DNA of 13,077 bases from a virus (IMGVR_UViG_2671180603_000001); one strand, 5' to 3'; positions 6,050 to 11,559 are shown, counted from the stretch's first letter. Notes: generated by a model from the letters alone, not told the origin. A program made the numbers and translations.

Positions 6050-8956
6050 TTAATACTCCGTCACGTTTTCCTGTCGCCACGCCTCGTCATATTCCGATTT
6101 CGGCATATTGGCGATGTAGCTATATGGCGATCCTGATTCAAGTTGCAGGAACTGGTGCGATTGCTCGTCAAGGAACAACGGAACACCACCTTCCCAGCCT
6201 TCGCCGTTACGTTGTTTTTCAAGCATCAAAACAGATGCAGGAGACGCCAGTAGCTGTTCGTCCTTCTCTGACATCTTTTCACCACTCTGAACTCTCTGTA
6301 ACGCTCTCTCGCGAGCCTTGTTACGCCAGATGATGAAAAGGTTGTCTGTCAGGTCTGTTATCGCTCCAGAGCCTTTCACGTCCATTTTCCCGGTTGGTTT
6401 TTCTTCGCTGTCTCCTTTTCTGGAGTGAGTAACGAGAATGACGTGGGAGTTTGTTTTGTTTTTGAAGTCACAAATCGAGTCAACAAACGCTTTCTGCCCG
6501 TTATAGTCATCGTCACCTATGCCGCATTTCATCAGGCTGTCGATAATGAATAACTGGATGCCGTATCGGCGGCGAGCGTAGTCGAATATTTCGATCAGCC
6601 TGTCGGCTTTCGCCGTTCCGGTCAGGCCAAACACCCAAAGTCTTTCGTCATAAAATTTAAATGCAGAGTCAATTTCCAGCACTGGCGGCATCTTGCAGCA
6701 CGTTGCCTGACGGGTAAGTCGCTTAAGGAGAATACCAGGCTTCAGCTCAAGTGACGCGATGCACGTCTTCACACCCTGACGCATTGCCTCAAGTGCCATA
6801 TGCCCGACAACCTCGGTGTTATGCGTCGCCACATATCCCCTGGTTACATACAGGTGGCGAGGGTGATCGACCATAATACACAAGCATTCTGCATTGCCGA
6901 TTTTTTCAACATTCCTGACGAATACCCCACAGCCCTCGAATCGATGCGCAGTTAATCTGCCATTGAGTCGTGGTGAACGGATGGCCTCCCTGATTTCTCT
7001 TGTCAGTCTGATTCTTGCCTCGTATGAATCCATCCCATGCCGCTTATCGTCCTTGTATGTGTATGTCACGCCAGTTTTAACTCGCGTCCGGCATGACCCG
7101 CCGAGTGAGTTAACCAGTTGAACAACCCCATTGCGCAGTTTTTCACTTGCTGAGGAAAAAACAAGCGTTCCATCCTTCTCGACATACCCATCCGTTTCAA
7201 GCAGACCACACAGCATGCCTATACGCGTTGATTTATTTGCGGAAAAAAACACACGAGGGATGAATTTGTTTTTTGCTGTGCACCCCATTAGTCCATAACC
7301 TCGCAGGGTCTCCATGAGTGGATTTACCTGACCACGCGCCGTTGATATCAGCCAGTCCTTACCATCTCCAGAGAAGTTGTAATCAGGCAGTTCAGCCTTC
7401 ATACGCTCGATCATGTATGGCTCGACGTTTGAAAACTTCACGCTCCCATTGCTAAGACTACCATCCCCGAGAAGGGAGCCGATAACCCATGCTAATGGCT
7501 CTGAGTGGTCGCCAAAGTCACCAGTTATTTCAGGAATCCTAACGCCATTTTTGTGCCTCTTCGTTTCACTCAACCGCTTCAACCCGAAGGTATCTATCAC
7601 GCGGCGTTTCTCGCCTTTCGTGAATCCACGACTAGTGACCTCCCATAGGTGATCGCCTGCGCAATCAACATAACGACCATCTTCAAATGTGACTCGGTAA
7701 ACATCTCTAACACCCTGCGGGAATATCCCAGTGACAGTTGACGGATTGCCGTCTACTGACGCCACCTGATCGCCAATTTTTACATTCCCGTGAGTAGTCC
7801 ATGTCCCATCAGCTAAAAGAATAGGCTCATTCAGTGGGCATGCCTTTCCGTGACCGTTCACACCATTGACCAGCGTCAACTCTGCCTCACGGAACTGGAA
7901 TTTATCTGCCAGAGATTCCCACGGTGGATTAAACAGATACTGCTGCTTGCCGTAGAAAGCGTTGATAGTGTCCTGGTAAAACTCGCGCGCGCTGTAGAGT
8001 TCTTCAGGATCGAAGTAGGATGCCGTGCCGATGTACTGCCAGATTTCATCCTCGGTAACACCGTTCATCAGGCATTCGTTGATGTCTTTGTACGGCAGAG
8101 TAACAAGACGGCAACGATGTTCACCGAGTCGGCTTGCGATTTCCCTTGCGGCTTCACGACCAACATCATCAACGTCCATCGAGATGAATATTTCCTCAAA
8201 CCTGTCGAGGTTGTGATACTCAAACTCAATCCACTGTTGCTTAGCGCCTTTCCCGCCACCAAACGGCACGGATAACGCCGAGATGCCGTATTGCGCATAG
8301 CTCATACAATCAATTTCGCCTTCGCAAAGCACAACCGCCCTCACGCCAGCGTCCAGAGCCTGCCATCCGAACAGGCAAGGTTCGCAATCACCTTCTGCCA
8401 TAATGACTTTCTTCCCGTCCGGGCGCTCAGTGCTGATTCGCTTGACCTGCAACAACTCACCATCGCGTTTGTACGGAAGCACCAGAGCATCCAGTTCTCG
8501 TTCTCCATTCCACACCTTGCCGCTGACAACCTCGTAGCGCTTTACGACTTCTGGCGATATGCCACGCGATTGCAGGTACTCAAGATGGGATTCTGTTCTG
8601 GTAACGTAGTGGGCGATTTTCTTGCGATCAGGTCTGGAGAATTTCTTCTCACGTCTGGCATCGAAATGGTGATCGTCATCCTTGATACCGAGAAATGCTT
8701 TCGCTTCCTGCATAGCCTGATGCAGGTTAATTCCACGACATGCCATCCACAAATCAAGCATGTCACCGCCGTCTCCCTCAGCGAAATCAGCCCATTTTTT
8801 CTTACCGCTAAGGTTGACCTTAAGGCTGTTTCCCTTGTCACCGTTGACGTTACCGGCAACCCACTCATGCCCCTCTTTCTTGCCGTTTGGCAACAGGTGC
8901 GGAGCCACCCTGTCAACCTGCGCCCAAAGCAGGTCGCTAAGTTCTGATGGACTCAT
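6050..8956 (-). CDS. bifunctional Toprim primase - SF4 (T7 gp4/DnaB-like) helicase, intein-containing
   Basis: 968-aa ORF. Toprim motifs at residues 200-265 (VVLCEGEIDCMS, SMDVDDVG). Helicase motifs in the C-terminal part (Walker A GVNGHGKA.T split by the intein, Walker B QLFIIDSLMK, then ILVTHSRKG and KGSGAITDLTDNLFII, which parallel T7 gp4 H2-H4 as I recall them). Confidence 0.8.
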   Translation of the reverse strand: MSPSELSDLLWAQVDRVAPHLLPNGKKEGHEWVAGNVNGDKGNSLKVNLSGKKKWADFAEGDGGDMLDLWMACRGINLHQAMQEAKAFLGIKDDDHHFDARREKKFSRPDRKKIAHYVTRTESHLEYLQSRGISPEVVKRYEVVSGKVWNGERELDALVLPYKRDGELLQVKRISTERPDGKKVIMAEGDCEPCLFGWQALDAGVRAVVLCEGEIDCMSYAQYGISALSVPFGGGKGAKQQWIEFEYHNLDRFEEIFISMDVDDVGREAAREIASRLGEHRCRLVTLPYKDINECLMNGVTEDEIWQYIGTASYFDPEELYSAREFYQDTINAFYGKQQYLFNPPWESLADKFQFREAELTLVNGVNGHGKACPLNEPILLADGTWTTHGNVKIGDQVASVDGNPSTVTGIFPQGVRDVYRVTFEDGRYVDCAGDHLWEVTSRGFTKGEKRRVIDTFGLKRLSETKRHKNGVRIPEITGDFGDHSEPLAWVIGSLLGDGSLSNGSVKFSNVEPYMIERMKAELPDYNFSGDGKDWLISTARGQVNPLMETLRGYGLMGCTAKNKFIPRVFFSANKSTRIGMLCGLLETDGYVEKDGTLVFSSASEKLRNGVVQLVNSLGGSCRTRVKTGVTYTYKDDKRHGMDSYEARIRLTREIREAIRSPRLNGRLTAHRFEGCGVFVRNVEKIGNAECLCIMVDHPRHLYVTRGYVATHNTEVVGHMALEAMRQGVKTCIASLELKPGILLKRLTRQATCCKMPPVLEIDSAFKFYDERLWVFGLTGTAKADRLIEIFDYARRRYGIQLFIIDSLMKCGIGDDDYNGQKAFVDSICDFKNKTNSHVILVTHSRKGDSEEKPTGKMDVKGSGAITDLTDNLFIIWRNKARERALQRVQSGEKMSEKDEQLLASPASVLMLEKQRNGEGWEGGVPLFLDEQSHQFLQLESGSPYSYIANMPKSEYDEAWRQENVTEY
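6818..7840 (-). mobile_element. intein with LAGLIDADG homing-endonuclease domain (residues 373-713 of the primase-helicase)
   Basis: Starts with Cys373 in a block-A-like context (CPLNEPILLADGTW...VKIGDQVASVDG, similar in pattern to the Sce VMA intein start). Ends ...YVATHN followed by Thr714, the canonical HN plus nucleophile. Two LAGLIDADG-like motifs inside (WVIGSLLGDGS at 490-500, GMLCGLLETDGYV at 580-592). Boundary codons checked on the DNA. Confidence 0.75.
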
Positions 8957-9183: not shown

Positions 9184-9915
9184 TCACCTGTCGAAAAACA
9201 CGTAGCCAGTTTTCGATACGGTAATTGCGGATGATGGTCTGGATTGTGGTTGAATGGTTTCTGGCTTCTCGTCGTTCCAGCGCTGACCGTTCAGGTAGCT
9301 CGACGGTAACAACCTGTCGAATCCGAACTGCTTACCATTCCTGCATGCGATGTCTTCTGCCAGCATCGTGGCAAACTCGCTTGCCGTACCCCTGGTAGTT
9401 TTACGCCATTCCCTGAACTGTGTTCTGAATGCCGAAGCTGCGTTTTTCTTCCCGGCTTTCCGCATGCCTGCACACCAGAATATTTCCTCGAATGCCTTGT
9501 CGGTTTCTTCGTGACGGTCAGGAGTTTTTTCACACTCCGTTCGGACATGTTCGAACATAATGTTTTTAGGTTCATTGACTGGTTCAAAAGAGTGATAGGT
9601 TCTGGGGGCAGCTCCTGCCCCACCCCCTAGGGCAGCTCCTGCCTGTGCATTATCCAGCGTCAGATAAAAAACGTTTGACTGGTTAAGCTCTCCTTTTCTT
9701 CTGCATTCCCTTTTCAAAAGCCCCATCTCTTCCAGTGCCCTAATGTGACTTTTTACTGTCGATCTGCTCACCTCACACTGGTCAGCGACATGTTGATATG
9801 AAGGCCAGCATTCGCCATTATCATTGGCGTTATCGGCAAGTTTAATCAGAATCAGTTTTCTCAGTGGGTTGCCAACCTTTATATTCATGGCCTTAGCCAT
9901 AAGATTCATGCTCAT
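9184..9915 (-). CDS. phage replication initiator with N-terminal winged-helix/HTH domain
   Basis: 243-aa ORF with an N-terminal HTH-like domain (LADNANDNGECWPSYQHVADQCEVSRSTVKSHIRALEEMGLL), a Gly/Ala-rich linker and a basic C-terminal half. Occupies the lambda O position upstream of the helicase. GGAGAA Shine-Dalgarno. Confidence 0.7.
   Translation of the reverse strand: MSMNLMAKAMNIKVGNPLRKLILIKLADNANDNGECWPSYQHVADQCEVSRSTVKSHIRALEEMGLLKRECRRKGELNQSNVFYLTLDNAQAGAALGGGAGAAPRTYHSFEPVNEPKNIMFEHVRTECEKTPDRHEETDKAFEEIFWCAGMRKAGKKNAASAFRTQFREWRKTTRGTASEFATMLAEDIACRNGKQFGFDRLLPSSYLNGQRWNDEKPETIQPQSRPSSAITVSKTGYVFFDR
9575..9684. repeat. iteron-like direct repeats inside the initiator gene (candidate origin)
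   Basis: Exact 10-mer TTGACTGGTT at 9575-9584 and 9675-9684, exactly 100 bp apart. Between them GGGCAGCTCCTGCC occurs twice (9606-9619, 9630-9643; 24-bp period), followed by an A-rich tract (9662-9670). The 12-bp palindrome ATGTTCGAACAT lies just upstream (9547-9558). Confidence 0.4.
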
Positions 9916-10066: not shown

Positions 10067-10134
10067 GTTGGATGTTGTTAAAATTCCATTTGTATTTGAT
10101 CAGAACGCTCGGTCTTGCACACCGGGCGTTTTTT
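10067..10134 (+). ncRNA. oop: oop-like antisense RNA with promoter and terminator
   Basis: Consensus -10 TATAAT at 10055-10060. Intrinsic terminator at 10106-10134 (CGCTCGG-N9-CCGGGCG with one G-U pair, then TTTTTT) lies antisense within the cII 3-prime end, the same arrangement as lambda oop. Predicted RNA about 68 nt. Confidence 0.45.
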
Positions 10135-10377
10135 ATTGGTGAGTCCATCAAGCGCATACTTAAAAGCCCTGCTAATCGGACTGATGTCTGATGCCATTCC
10201 GAAAGCACACAAGACCGAAGCAATAAACCTCCAGTCCGTTCTGCTTATCTTCGATTCATGACAGCCAATCATCTTTGCCAGACCGCGCTGGGTAAGCGTT
10301 GACAGGTTGATGAGTAAATCTGTTTCTGCACGATCAACGTCGCGCTGTGATAGTTTGCTGTAACTTGTTTGTTCCAT
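10078..10377 (-). CDS. cII: transcriptional activator CII
   Basis: 99-aa ORF whose C-terminal half matches my memory of lambda CII (ILTNKKRPAATERSEQIQMEF versus LTNKKRPVCKTERSDQIQMEF here). HTH in the middle. Confidence 0.85.
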   Translation of the reverse strand: MEQTSYSKLSQRDVDRAETDLLINLSTLTQRGLAKMIGCHESKISRTDWRFIASVLCAFGMASDISPISRAFKYALDGLTNKKRPVCKTERSDQIQMEF

Positions 10378-10515: not shown

Positions 10516-10740
10516 TTATGCTGCCTGATTCGGTTTTGGAAACAGGTGTGGTAAATCTGGGCGAATTTCGTAAGCCTTGATCTGCCCTCCAGTGGCGTTA
10601 ACGATGGCGGTAACTTTCTCTGGAGAAACCTGCCCGCCTTTCAGCCATTTGTGTACTGCTGGCTGCGTTACACCACACTTGTCGGCAAGCCGCTTTTGAC
10701 TACCGACAATCTTCAAGGCTCGTTGAATTACTAAATTCAT
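10516..10740 (-). CDS. cro: Cro-like HTH repressor
   Basis: 74 aa from the ATG at 10740 (AGAGGT Shine-Dalgarno 7 nt upstream; track ORF extends to 10761). HTH segment QKRLADKCGVTQPAVHKWL. Divergent from the cI-like gene. Confidence 0.7.
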   Translation of the reverse strand: MNLVIQRALKIVGSQKRLADKCGVTQPAVHKWLKGGQVSPEKVTAIVNATGGQIKAYEIRPDLPHLFPKPNQAA

Positions 10741-10761
10741 GAGCATACCTCTTTCAGCCAT

Positions 10762-10851
10762 TACTTATAACCAAGGATAACTCAAGTTATAAAAGATAGC
10801 AATAACCTTTATTATTTTACTTTGGATAACCGTAGTTATAGATTTGTGGAT
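10762..10851. promoter_or_regulatory. right operator region with divergent promoters for cro and cI
   Basis: Three 14-bp sites of form ATAAC-N4-GTTAT at 24-25 bp spacing: 10777-10790 (ATAACTCAAGTTAT), 10802-10815 (ATAACCTTTATTAT, imperfect), 10826-10839 (ATAACCGTAGTTAT). Candidate cI promoter: TTTTAC (10815-10820) and TATAGA (10837-10842), which would give a near-leaderless cI mRNA. Candidate cro promoter -10 TATAAG on the minus strand (10764-10769). Confidence 0.5.
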
Positions 10852-11559
10852 ATGAAAACATTCGCAGAAAGACTAAATGCAGCCATGAGATCGGCAGGGG
10901 TGTCGCAATCACAGCTTGCGGACATGGTTGGAATATCTCAGCCAGCCATACAGAAGATGTCATCCGGTAAAACAAACGGATCTCGCAAGATGGTTGAGTT
11001 AGCTAATGCTTTAAAAGTACGCCCTGAATGGCTTAGTTCTGGTATTGGTGAAATGAGGGATGGTACACATGAAGAACCATCCAATATCCGTGAGTCATCT
11101 TTAAAAGCTGTGGTATGGGAAGACATTAAAAAAAACGATGACGAGTTTGTCGCATTGCCTCTTCTTAACGTTTCGCTTTCGGCTGGAAGCGGTAGCTGCG
11201 AGATAGAAGAATCATCAGAGTTCTCTTTGGTTTTCAGAAAGTACTATCTGAAAAAGATGGGGGTAACTGAAAGTTCTGCCAAGCTGGTAAGGGTAACAGG
11301 TCAAAGCATGGAACCAACTCTTCACGATGGCGATGTTGTTGGTGTTAACACACAAGATACCACCATCAGAGATGGTAAAACCTACGCTATTTGCCAGTCT
11401 GATTTGTTGCGAGTAAAAACATTAATCGCCACTCCTACATCGGTGATAATCAGATCAATAAATCGCGAAGAGTACCCGGATGAAGTAATGGATAGAGATG
11501 AATTTCATAAAACCGTAAGGATTATTGGCAGAGTATTCTGGTCATCGCATAGCTGGTAA
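10852..11559 (+). CDS. cI: CI-type prophage repressor (HTH plus S24 LexA-like autopeptidase domain)
   Basis: 235 aa from the ATG at 10852 (track ORF begins at TTG 10822). N-terminal HTH (QSQLADMVGISQPAIQKM); C-terminal S24 motifs (Ala-Gly site in LSAGSG, GQSMEP serine motif, downstream Lys in LLRVKTL). Confidence 0.85.
   Translation: MKTFAERLNAAMRSAGVSQSQLADMVGISQPAIQKMSSGKTNGSRKMVELANALKVRPEWLSSGIGEMRDGTHEEPSNIRESSLKAVVWEDIKKNDDEFVALPLLNVSLSAGSGSCEIEESSEFSLVFRKYYLKKMGVTESSAKLVRVTGQSMEPTLHDGDVVGVNTQDTTIRDGKTYAICQSDLLRVKTLIATPTSVIIRSINREEYPDEVMDRDEFHKTVRIIGRVFWSSHSW

Follow-up and report, generated by a model that had tools for sequence, protein, structure and literature searches.

A probable class 3 intein with a LAGLIDADG domain splits the Walker A motif of the primase-helicase in a temperate lambdoid phage replication module

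The replicative primase-helicase encoded by the viral DNA IMGVR_UViG_2671180603_000001 (a stretch of 13,077 nucleotides, analysed at its full length and referred to here as the window) contains an intein of 342 amino acids (aa), located at 6818..7843 on the minus strand, which begins with an Ala followed by a Cys and splits the Walker A motif precisely between the Lys and Thr of GxxGxGK|T. We consider it very likely that this is a class 3 intein in which the internal block F Cys322 (precursor residue 693) would be the initiating nucleophile, and this judgement is a joint one for the best explanation as a whole, that of a bifunctional class 3 intein at GVNGHGK|T of a T7 gp4-like primase-helicase, homing included. 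An original prediction made from the sequence alone had recognised an intein with LAGLIDADG motifs in this replicative primase-helicase and had taken the source for a temperate lambdoid phage, and the domains and neighbouring genes we describe below bear this out, for a phage or a prophage. The same prediction had also given the intein a canonical Cys1 end and a length of 341 aa, and on these two points it has to be corrected.

The boundaries were established by comparison with intein-free alleles. A megablast search against phage genomes returned the full-length gene at 97.9–98.8% identity from Min27, 24B, Stx2a_F403/F451, phiXuzhou21, Stx2_16002 and the Klebsiella phage phiKp_30, and two-piece matches at ~98% identity and 64–65% query cover from Sf101, mEp043, APC_JM3.2, Stx2_EH2085/2086 and vB_EcoP-720R6, with several Salmonella phages likewise giving two-piece matches at 87%. 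When the window protein was aligned with two intein-free alleles, those of Sf101 and mEp043 (empty site GGTGTGAACGGTCACGGAAAA|ACGGAGGTTGTCGGGCATATGG), ...GVNGHGK|TEVVGHM... was found to correspond to ...GVNGHGK-ACPLNE...YVATHN-TEVVGHM..., and comparison of the DNA junctions with six intein-free alleles of ~98% nucleotide (nt) identity showed that the insert is exactly 1026 base pairs (bp) or 342 codons, in frame (AAG|GCA TGC ... CAT AAC|ACC with the intein, AAA|ACG without). The placement is unambiguous at the protein level because the flanking K and T differ from the insert ends N and A. Alignment of the extein with intein-free homologues, a check which had been proposed with the original prediction, thus finds the clean insertion at the P-loop that was foreseen, one residue longer than expected since the alleles read GHGK|TEVV. 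The codons at 7838-7840 and 6818-6820 had been correctly read as Cys and Asn, and the terminal HN followed by Thr is present in the sequence, but excision at the predicted boundaries would give GHGKATEVV, a P-loop lengthened by one Ala that no intein-free allele has. The existence of these alleles, which together with the many related proteins described below places the element well outside what chance would produce, also led us to reject an integral, non-excisable domain.

It had been anticipated that the insertion would split the Walker A region, and the break between Lys and Thr is the 'classic' P-loop intein site (PMC5050341). In this position Thr+1 (Thr714) belongs to Walker A and would also be the nucleophile of the splice junction, and an ATPase-competent P-loop can be formed only after excision.

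The host protein is encoded by a single open reading frame (ORF) of 968 aa plus stop on the minus strand, as predicted, in which Pfam recognises an N-terminal Toprim domain and a C-terminal fragment of AAA_25 with LAGLIDADG_3, Hom_end_hint and Hom_end between them (LAGLIDADG_3 at E 3.4e-8 lies above the Pfam cut-off and Hom_end_hint at 25.5 bits under it). All NCBIfam matches to the internal segment are to the intein parts of intein-containing DnaB, RecA, GyrA, RNR and Tes proteins. Both ATPase profiles span the junction in the protein of Sf101, which has no intein (AAA_25 at residues 357-507 and DnaB_C at residues 355-594), and when the intein is removed GVNGHGKT is restored and the same two profiles score 28 bits (AAA_25, cut-off 27) and 23.8 bits (DnaB_C, just under its cut-off of 27). 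The host protein therefore has the N-terminal Toprim and C-terminal RecA/DnaB-type ATPase with Walker A GxxxxGK[ST] which define T7 gp4-like primase-helicases; CDD domain assignments for the gene P protein have also been given elsewhere (PMC3430580).

Class 3 inteins are defined by a non-nucleophilic residue 1 together with Trp at B12, Cys at F4 and Thr at G5 (the WCT triplet), usually with Thr or Ser at +1 (PMC2807308, PMC3196547), and the window intein has Ala1, GDH65-L-W67, ECLC322IMV, AT340-H-N342 and Thr+1. Among PDB entries the class 3 MchDnaB1 intein (6RIX/6RIY, E 2.3e-9, HMMER) is the closest to it in sequence, with His65, Trp67, Cys322, Thr340 and Asn342 aligned with MchDnaB1 His65, Trp67, Cys124, Thr143 and Asn145, for which these catalytic roles have been described in a structure that also starts with Ala1 after ...GK (PMC7664689). 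The signature Ala1...HLW...C(F4)...THN|T/S is found in all five phage relatives we compared, the inteins of TL-2011a (GMGK|AMALSEG...VTHN|T), Alice gp175 (GSGK|AEPVSEP...LTHN|S), ph0011 (GAGK|AQPLDEP...VTHN|T), the Acinetobacter phage terminase (GSGK|AQPLYSK...VTHN|T) and Spud gp208 (KSL|ACSTPIL...PTHN|T).

A homologue search of a 5.8-billion-sequence database at an E limit of 1e-10 proved too strict, returning five proteins, and we used instead an exhaustive HMMER search of 1.84 billion representative proteins which found 16,570 relatives. Conservation was counted in the best 149 of these, which supplied 144 full-length intein domains. Gly and Lys precede the intein at positions -2 and -1 (125 and 126 of 144), position 1 is Ala in 107/144 and Cys in none, and position 2 is Gln in 102/144, Leu in 30/144 and again Cys in none. 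The remaining signature positions are almost invariant, with His at B10 (His65) in 144/144, Trp at B12 (Trp67) in 143/144, Cys at F4 (Cys322) in 144/144, Thr at G5 (Thr340) in 141/144, His at the His341 position in 140/144 and Asn at G7 (Asn342) in 144/144, followed by Thr (132/144) or Ser (11/144) at +1. As position 2 varies and the F4 Cys does not, the conserved nucleophile appears to be the internal Cys322 and not the Cys at the N-terminal end. We also considered class 2 (KlbA-type) inteins, which lack an N-terminal nucleophile and the WCT triplet and in which Cys+1 attacks the N-terminal junction directly (PMC2807308, PMC3196547), and rejected this class because the triplet is present here and +1 is Thr.

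We infer splicing, its chemistry and endonuclease activity from the family, and the following sequence of events would be expected. The precursor, having no intact P-loop, should be inactive as a helicase. Cys322, aided by His65 and Trp67 of block B and Thr340 of block G, would attack the Lys371-Ala372 bond to give a thioester block F branched intermediate, the N-extein would then be transferred to the side chain of Thr+1, and cyclisation of Asn342 (precursor Asn713) would release the intein. An O-to-N shift would yield ...GVNGHGKTEVVGHM..., the same as in the intein-free alleles, in a 626 aa protein with GVNGHGKT. The freed intein would probably use its LAGLIDADG domain to cut intein-free alleles at the AAA|ACG junction, and repair would copy the intein into the cut allele, so that homing might carry it from one lambdoid or P22-like phage to another, co-resident or co-infecting, in Escherichia, Shigella, Salmonella and Klebsiella.

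An AlphaFold2 (AF2) model of the intein, built with a 47-sequence alignment, was obtained with a mean predicted local distance difference test (pLDDT) score of 94.8 and a predicted template modelling (pTM) score of 0.93, and in this model the intein has a HINT fold. A Foldseek comparison with the PDB gave PI-SceI as the best match to the whole model (TMq 0.72–0.76), followed by the TliVMA, PhoVMA and PI-PfuI inteins, with the class 3 mini-inteins 6RIY, 6RIX and 6BS8 covering the splicing domain (TMt 0.70–0.76) and I-DmoI covering the endonuclease domain. The two LAGLIDADG motifs noted in the original prediction (LAWVIGSLLGDGSL and RIGMLCGLLETDGYV) are present, the second pairing with FLAGLIDSDGYV of PI-SceI in the HMMER alignment, and judged by its sequence the domain is a predicted two-motif LAGLIDADG endonuclease in which both acidic residues are kept. 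The presence of Asp127 and Asp218, a Lys which aligns with a Lys of PI-SceI, motifs conserved in comparison with the 50%-identical TL-2011a intein, and a pLDDT > 90 for the endonuclease domain in the model all count against the intein being a fixed passenger that splices but has an inactive endonuclease, with its presence and absence explained by ordinary lambdoid modular recombination alone. We regard this alternative as possible though unlikely. It draws some support from the 19 of 144 relatives with Asn at the first catalytic position, so that endonuclease decay is common in the family, and nuclease activity here is a prediction which sequence alone cannot prove.

The distribution of the intein also bears on this choice. 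Among 5426 complete E. coli genomes the gene was found in 296, of which 79 have the full-length, intein-containing form, and both allele types occur within Traversvirus (Min27 and 24B with the intein, EH2086 without) and within Lederbergvirus (phiKp_30 with, Sf101 and APC_JM3.2 without). The codons flanking the junction differ between the two types, with Thr+1 encoded by ACC in all six intein-containing alleles compared and by ACG or ACT in the six intein-free alleles, and Lys-1 by AAG in five of the former and AAA in all of the latter. Between Stx2_16002, which has the intein, and Stx2_EH2086, which does not, there are 11 differing sites in 1881 nt of extein and all of these fall within -1..+303 of the junction, a clustering matched in none of 200,000 random placements (permutation). 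A junction-centred tract of 304 nt fits homing or allelic recombination (gene conversion at the insertion site), and such a short exchange lying exactly at the junction argues against a fixed passenger, whereas the high mosaicism of lambdoid phages, seen too in the extein haplotypes, would suit it. The window's own C-extein has a mosaic pattern from which we draw little. The extein haplotypes do not sort by intein presence, and a single vertical origin was rejected on this basis; a foreign base composition, which would have pointed to recent import, was likewise rejected, with 49.0% GC in the intein and 51.8% and 49.3% GC in the exteins. Most intein alleles differ by 1–7 nt and that of phiKp_30 by 29, of which 18 are synonymous and 11 non-synonymous; this ratio suggests purifying selection and is again less readily explained by an inactive endonuclease. 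No stop codons were found in the close alleles, which keep all catalytic residues, including the 94%-identical Salmonella allele. The homing-competent element of the original prediction is therefore compatible with what we see, the presence/absence polymorphism, the junction exchange tract and the synonymous differences at -1 and +1 being indirect evidence of mobility.

We note that the closest E. coli allele (99.2%) belongs to a prophage of FDAARGOS_943 (L014:10119-11275) in which the downstream ninB is broken by an IS600-family element. The immunity region of this prophage differs from that of the window (it is rexA/rexB-like with a lambda-type cI), and it is the replication gene alone that is shared and not the whole prophage. 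Elsewhere, a free-standing NUMOD4/HNH endonuclease gene lies under or beside an intein-free primase-helicase allele (E. coli 19AR0253, NZ_CM132281.1 3007348-3009227), and phage SH2026Stx1 has an HNH endonuclease in its replication region; homing endonucleases of several kinds seem to be drawn to this replication module.

Several observations weigh against the class 3, homing intein that we favour. Its placement in the class 3 clade is drawn from its nearest relatives (the 6RIX match and the F4 Cys in all 144 of the nearest full-length domains) and so is put forward as probable. Block B position 7 is Ala, which is rare (3/144 relatives), and as an Asp in this position has been proposed to be important in Msm DnaBi1 (PMC6195587), splicing efficiency is uncertain, although the equivalent Ser of MP-Be DnaB is dispensable (PMC2807308). 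The synonymous changes at the junction are not universal, as phiKp_30 has the intein and retains AAA at -1, and the tract separating Stx2_16002 and EH2086 records allelic recombination, being silent on gain as opposed to precise loss and on the endonuclease as the trigger. Finally, when we looked in the literature for other studies of the element we met Smith et al. 2012 alone and no experimental test, and these authors state that the activity of the 24B intein was not determined (PMC3430580).

The unusual Ala at B7 could also be taken, together with the many Shigella flexneri copies that are broken inside the intein and the frameshifts in the Min27 record, to mean that the intein does not splice, leaving the gene effectively dead and the prophage defective or reliant on another helicase. 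We think this very improbable, as the window ORF is intact with all splice-site and WCT residues present, the same allele provides the one replicative helicase gene in the replication module of 24B and of Min27, Stx phages which were both sequenced as phages, and it is intact in the 79 complete E. coli genomes and in Salmonella.

As regards the broken copies themselves, many of the Shigella flexneri entries are fragments which end at residue 608 or start at residue 695 (P0001, P0008, P0012, P0016-P0018 and P0020), and the gene seems to be broken inside the endonuclease domain of the intein. These fragments probably correspond to the ShP-Sfv primase inteins which Tori et al. 2010 describe as 'partial'. 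In the Min27 record (NC_010237.1, L002:6001-8909) the gene is divided into two coding sequences (CDS), 'P' and 'DNA primase', owing to two single-base insertions near gene positions 2497 and 2509 compared with all other alleles, which are probably sequencing errors or a recent frameshift.

A class 1 intein, in which the Cys after GVNGHGKA is residue 1, an N-S acyl shift initiates splicing, and 341 aa are excised to leave GVNGHGK-A-TEVV, is extremely improbable and we reject it: the Cys does lie one residue from the junction and is retained in all close alleles, and the C-terminal HN|T suits an intein of any class, but the first inserted residue is Ala, Lys is followed directly by Thr, with no Ala, in the intein-free alleles, and a residue inserted inside GxxxxGK[ST] should disable a P-loop ATPase. 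Family conservation contradicts it too, as the homologous position is Gln, Leu or Met after a conserved Ala, and the block A pattern A-x-P-L-x-E-P-[IV]-L is common to relatives in which residue 2 is Gln or Glu; in addition the WCT triplet, complete here, co-varies with a missing N-terminal nucleophile (PMC2807308).

If the class 3 assignment is right, Cys2 has no part in initiating splicing, and its pattern of conservation is peculiar, being absent from all 144 relatives and kept in every close allele, including that of Salmonella. It also occurs in the intein of mycobacteriophage Spud gp208, and with Cys320 and Cys322 it would place three cysteines near the active site. Much as in the Cys48-Cys118 trap of Msm DnaBi1, a class 3 intein (PMC6195587), Cys2 might pair with Cys322 or Cys320 in a reversible disulfide and act as a redox switch on the primase-helicase, inactive when oxidised and released on reduction. 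The sole basis for this idea is the contrast between relatives and close alleles and we hold it to be improbable; if true, it would couple replication in Stx-type prophages and their relatives to oxidative stress.

The intein has been described before and public databases already contain this very protein (an identical 968 aa protein from Shigella sonnei is listed by NCBI as a 'toprim domain-containing protein', in a 90% cluster whose 1494 members come from Shigella, E. coli and Salmonella), and we take the InBase entries for these elements to be 'EP-Min27 Primase', for the Min27 intein, and 'ShP-Sfv Primase'. Smith et al. 2012 reported an intein in replication protein P of the Stx phage vB_EcoP_24B starting at residue 372 (PMC3430580), and the P intein of 24B and Min27 is the same element as that of the window, at the same insertion point in a gene of 98.5% nt identity, the inteins differing at 7 nt and 4 aa. 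Residue 372 of the 24B protein is Ala, as here, and the end of the intein, given as residue 702 in that work, is residue 713 by our alignment. The phage backgrounds differ, with the window sharing ~53% of its length with 24B and Min27. Earlier, Tori et al. 2010 had listed Shigella flexneri prophage 'Primase' inteins without an N-terminal nucleophile which are partial, stopping before block F (PMC2807308).

Class 3 P-loop helicase inteins have been well characterised biochemically and structurally (PMC2807308, PMC7664689, PMC6195587). Like the window intein, the prototype MP-Be DnaB (PMC2807308), Msm DnaBi1 (6BS8, PMC6195587) and MchDnaB1 (6RIX, PMC7664689) are inserted after the GK of a replicative helicase Walker A and have the His-x-Trp of block B, the F4 Cys, the Thr-His-Asn of block G and Thr or Ser at +1, with Ala or Pro at position 1 in all of them. 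They differ in having DnaB as host, where the window has a Toprim-primase/gp4-type helicase, and Asp or Ser at B7 where the window has Ala together with Cys at position 2; MchDnaB1 and Msm DnaBi1 are also mini-inteins without an endonuclease, whereas the window intein has a full LAGLIDADG domain. This two-domain architecture of HINT and two-motif LAGLIDADG is shared with PI-SceI (the yeast VMA1 intein), which is nevertheless a class 1 intein (Cys1, Cys+1), exceeds the window intein by ~110 aa with an additional region for DNA recognition, and is only 15–17% identical to it. Amongst the phage inteins, those of TL-2011a (50% identical over all 342 residues), Alice gp175, ph0011 and the Acinetobacter phage terminase have the same Ala1/WCT signature and the same Walker A position; residue 2 in these is Met, Glu or Gln in place of Cys, and their hosts differ, being a DnaB-type helicase (TL-2011a), helicases (Alice gp175 and ph0011) and a terminase large subunit (the Acinetobacter phage).

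The 50%-identical intein is found at GK|T of a DnaB-type helicase (Pfam DnaB and DnaB_C) in TL-2011a (L004:2501-3517), Stx2_4151, Stx2_8048 and other Stx2a phages, and as this is a different helicase, Stx phages have two related, probably class 3 inteins circulating in their replication modules. In Acinetobacter phage MD-2021a (L008:1402-3948), the CDS named 'putative replication protein P' encodes the large subunit of a terminase (Terminase_6N/6C) with a related class 3 intein in its Walker A motif, and the product name in this record looks wrong.

The coordinates of the intein, its host gene and the neighbouring genes are collected in Table 1. Read backwards, the early region also includes two antirepressor genes (Ant) and RusA, and the lambdoid early gene order around the primase-helicase supports the description of the source as a temperate lambdoid phage. 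Two further ORFs on the minus strand (3504-3752 and 3753-4256) lie between the antirepressor genes and NinB, one of 82 aa with no PHROG match and one of 167 aa which matches a PHROG of unknown function over its last 43 residues only.

Table 1. Features of the primase-helicase gene, its intein and the surrounding early region (positions are those of the window).
Feature	Position	Strand	Basis
Precursor ORF: Toprim primase / gp4-type helicase in the 'P' slot of the lambdoid replication module, intein inside	6050..8956	-	ORF; 98.5% nt identity to gene P of 24B and Min27
Toprim domain of the primase part, residues 209-296	8069..8332	-	Pfam Toprim_2, E 7.6e-12
N-extein, residues 1-371, with Walker A as far as its Lys (...GVNGHGK) at the end	7844..8956	-	Alignment with Sf101 and mEp043
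Intein, precursor residues 372-713, Ala1...Asn342	6818..7843	-	Insertion of exactly 1026 bp by comparison with intein-free alleles
C-extein, residues 714-968 plus stop, starting with Thr+1 (ACC, 6815-6817)	6050..6817	-	Alignment with intein-free alleles
Ala1 codon GCA, true first intein residue, non-nucleophile	7841..7843	-	Intein-free alleles; Ala in 107/144 relatives
Cys2 codon TGC (Cys1 of the original prediction), lineage-specific, not conserved in the family	7838..7840	-	Cys in 0/144 relatives; kept in all close alleles
Splicing block B, YVDCAGDHLWEVTS; His65 (7649-7651), probable class 3 Trp67 (7643-7645)	7631..7672	-	Aligns with MchDnaB1 6RIX His65/Trp67
First LAGLIDADG motif, LAWVIGSLLGDGSL; predicted catalytic Asp127 (codon 7463-7465)	7454..7495	-	Asp 120, Asn 19, Glu 3 of 144 relatives
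Second LAGLIDADG motif, RIGMLCGLLETDGYV; predicted catalytic Asp218 (codon 7190-7192)	7181..7225	-	Pfam LAGLIDADG_3; Asp in 143/144 relatives
Splicing block F, AECLCIMVDHPRHLYV; probable class 3 nucleophile Cys322 (F4, codon 6878-6880)	6845..6892	-	Aligns with MchDnaB1 catalytic Cys124
Splicing block G, GYVATHN; Thr340 (G5 of the WCT triplet), His341, Asn342	6818..6838	-	Family alignment
cI-like repressor	10822..11559	+	Lambdoid early region
cro-like	10516..10761	-	Lambdoid early region
cII	10078..10377	-	Lambdoid early region
O-like initiator	9184..9915	-	Lambdoid early region
NinB	4640..5086	-	Lambdoid early region
Q	533..1156	-	Lambdoid early region

As a discovery the intein carries little weight, and the value of this analysis lies in the corrected annotation of an element of 342 aa with Ala1, Cys322 as the probable nucleophile, and Thr714 in the two roles of +1 and Walker A residue. 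An annotation starting with Cys1 would mislead splicing or endonuclease experiments on this element, which is widespread in Stx and Shigella prophages, in that the wrong mutant would be made and the wrong product predicted. As what is probably a natural full-length class 3 intein with an endonuclease domain, for which filled and empty alleles are both common in E. coli, it would be convenient for tests of homing in temperate phages.

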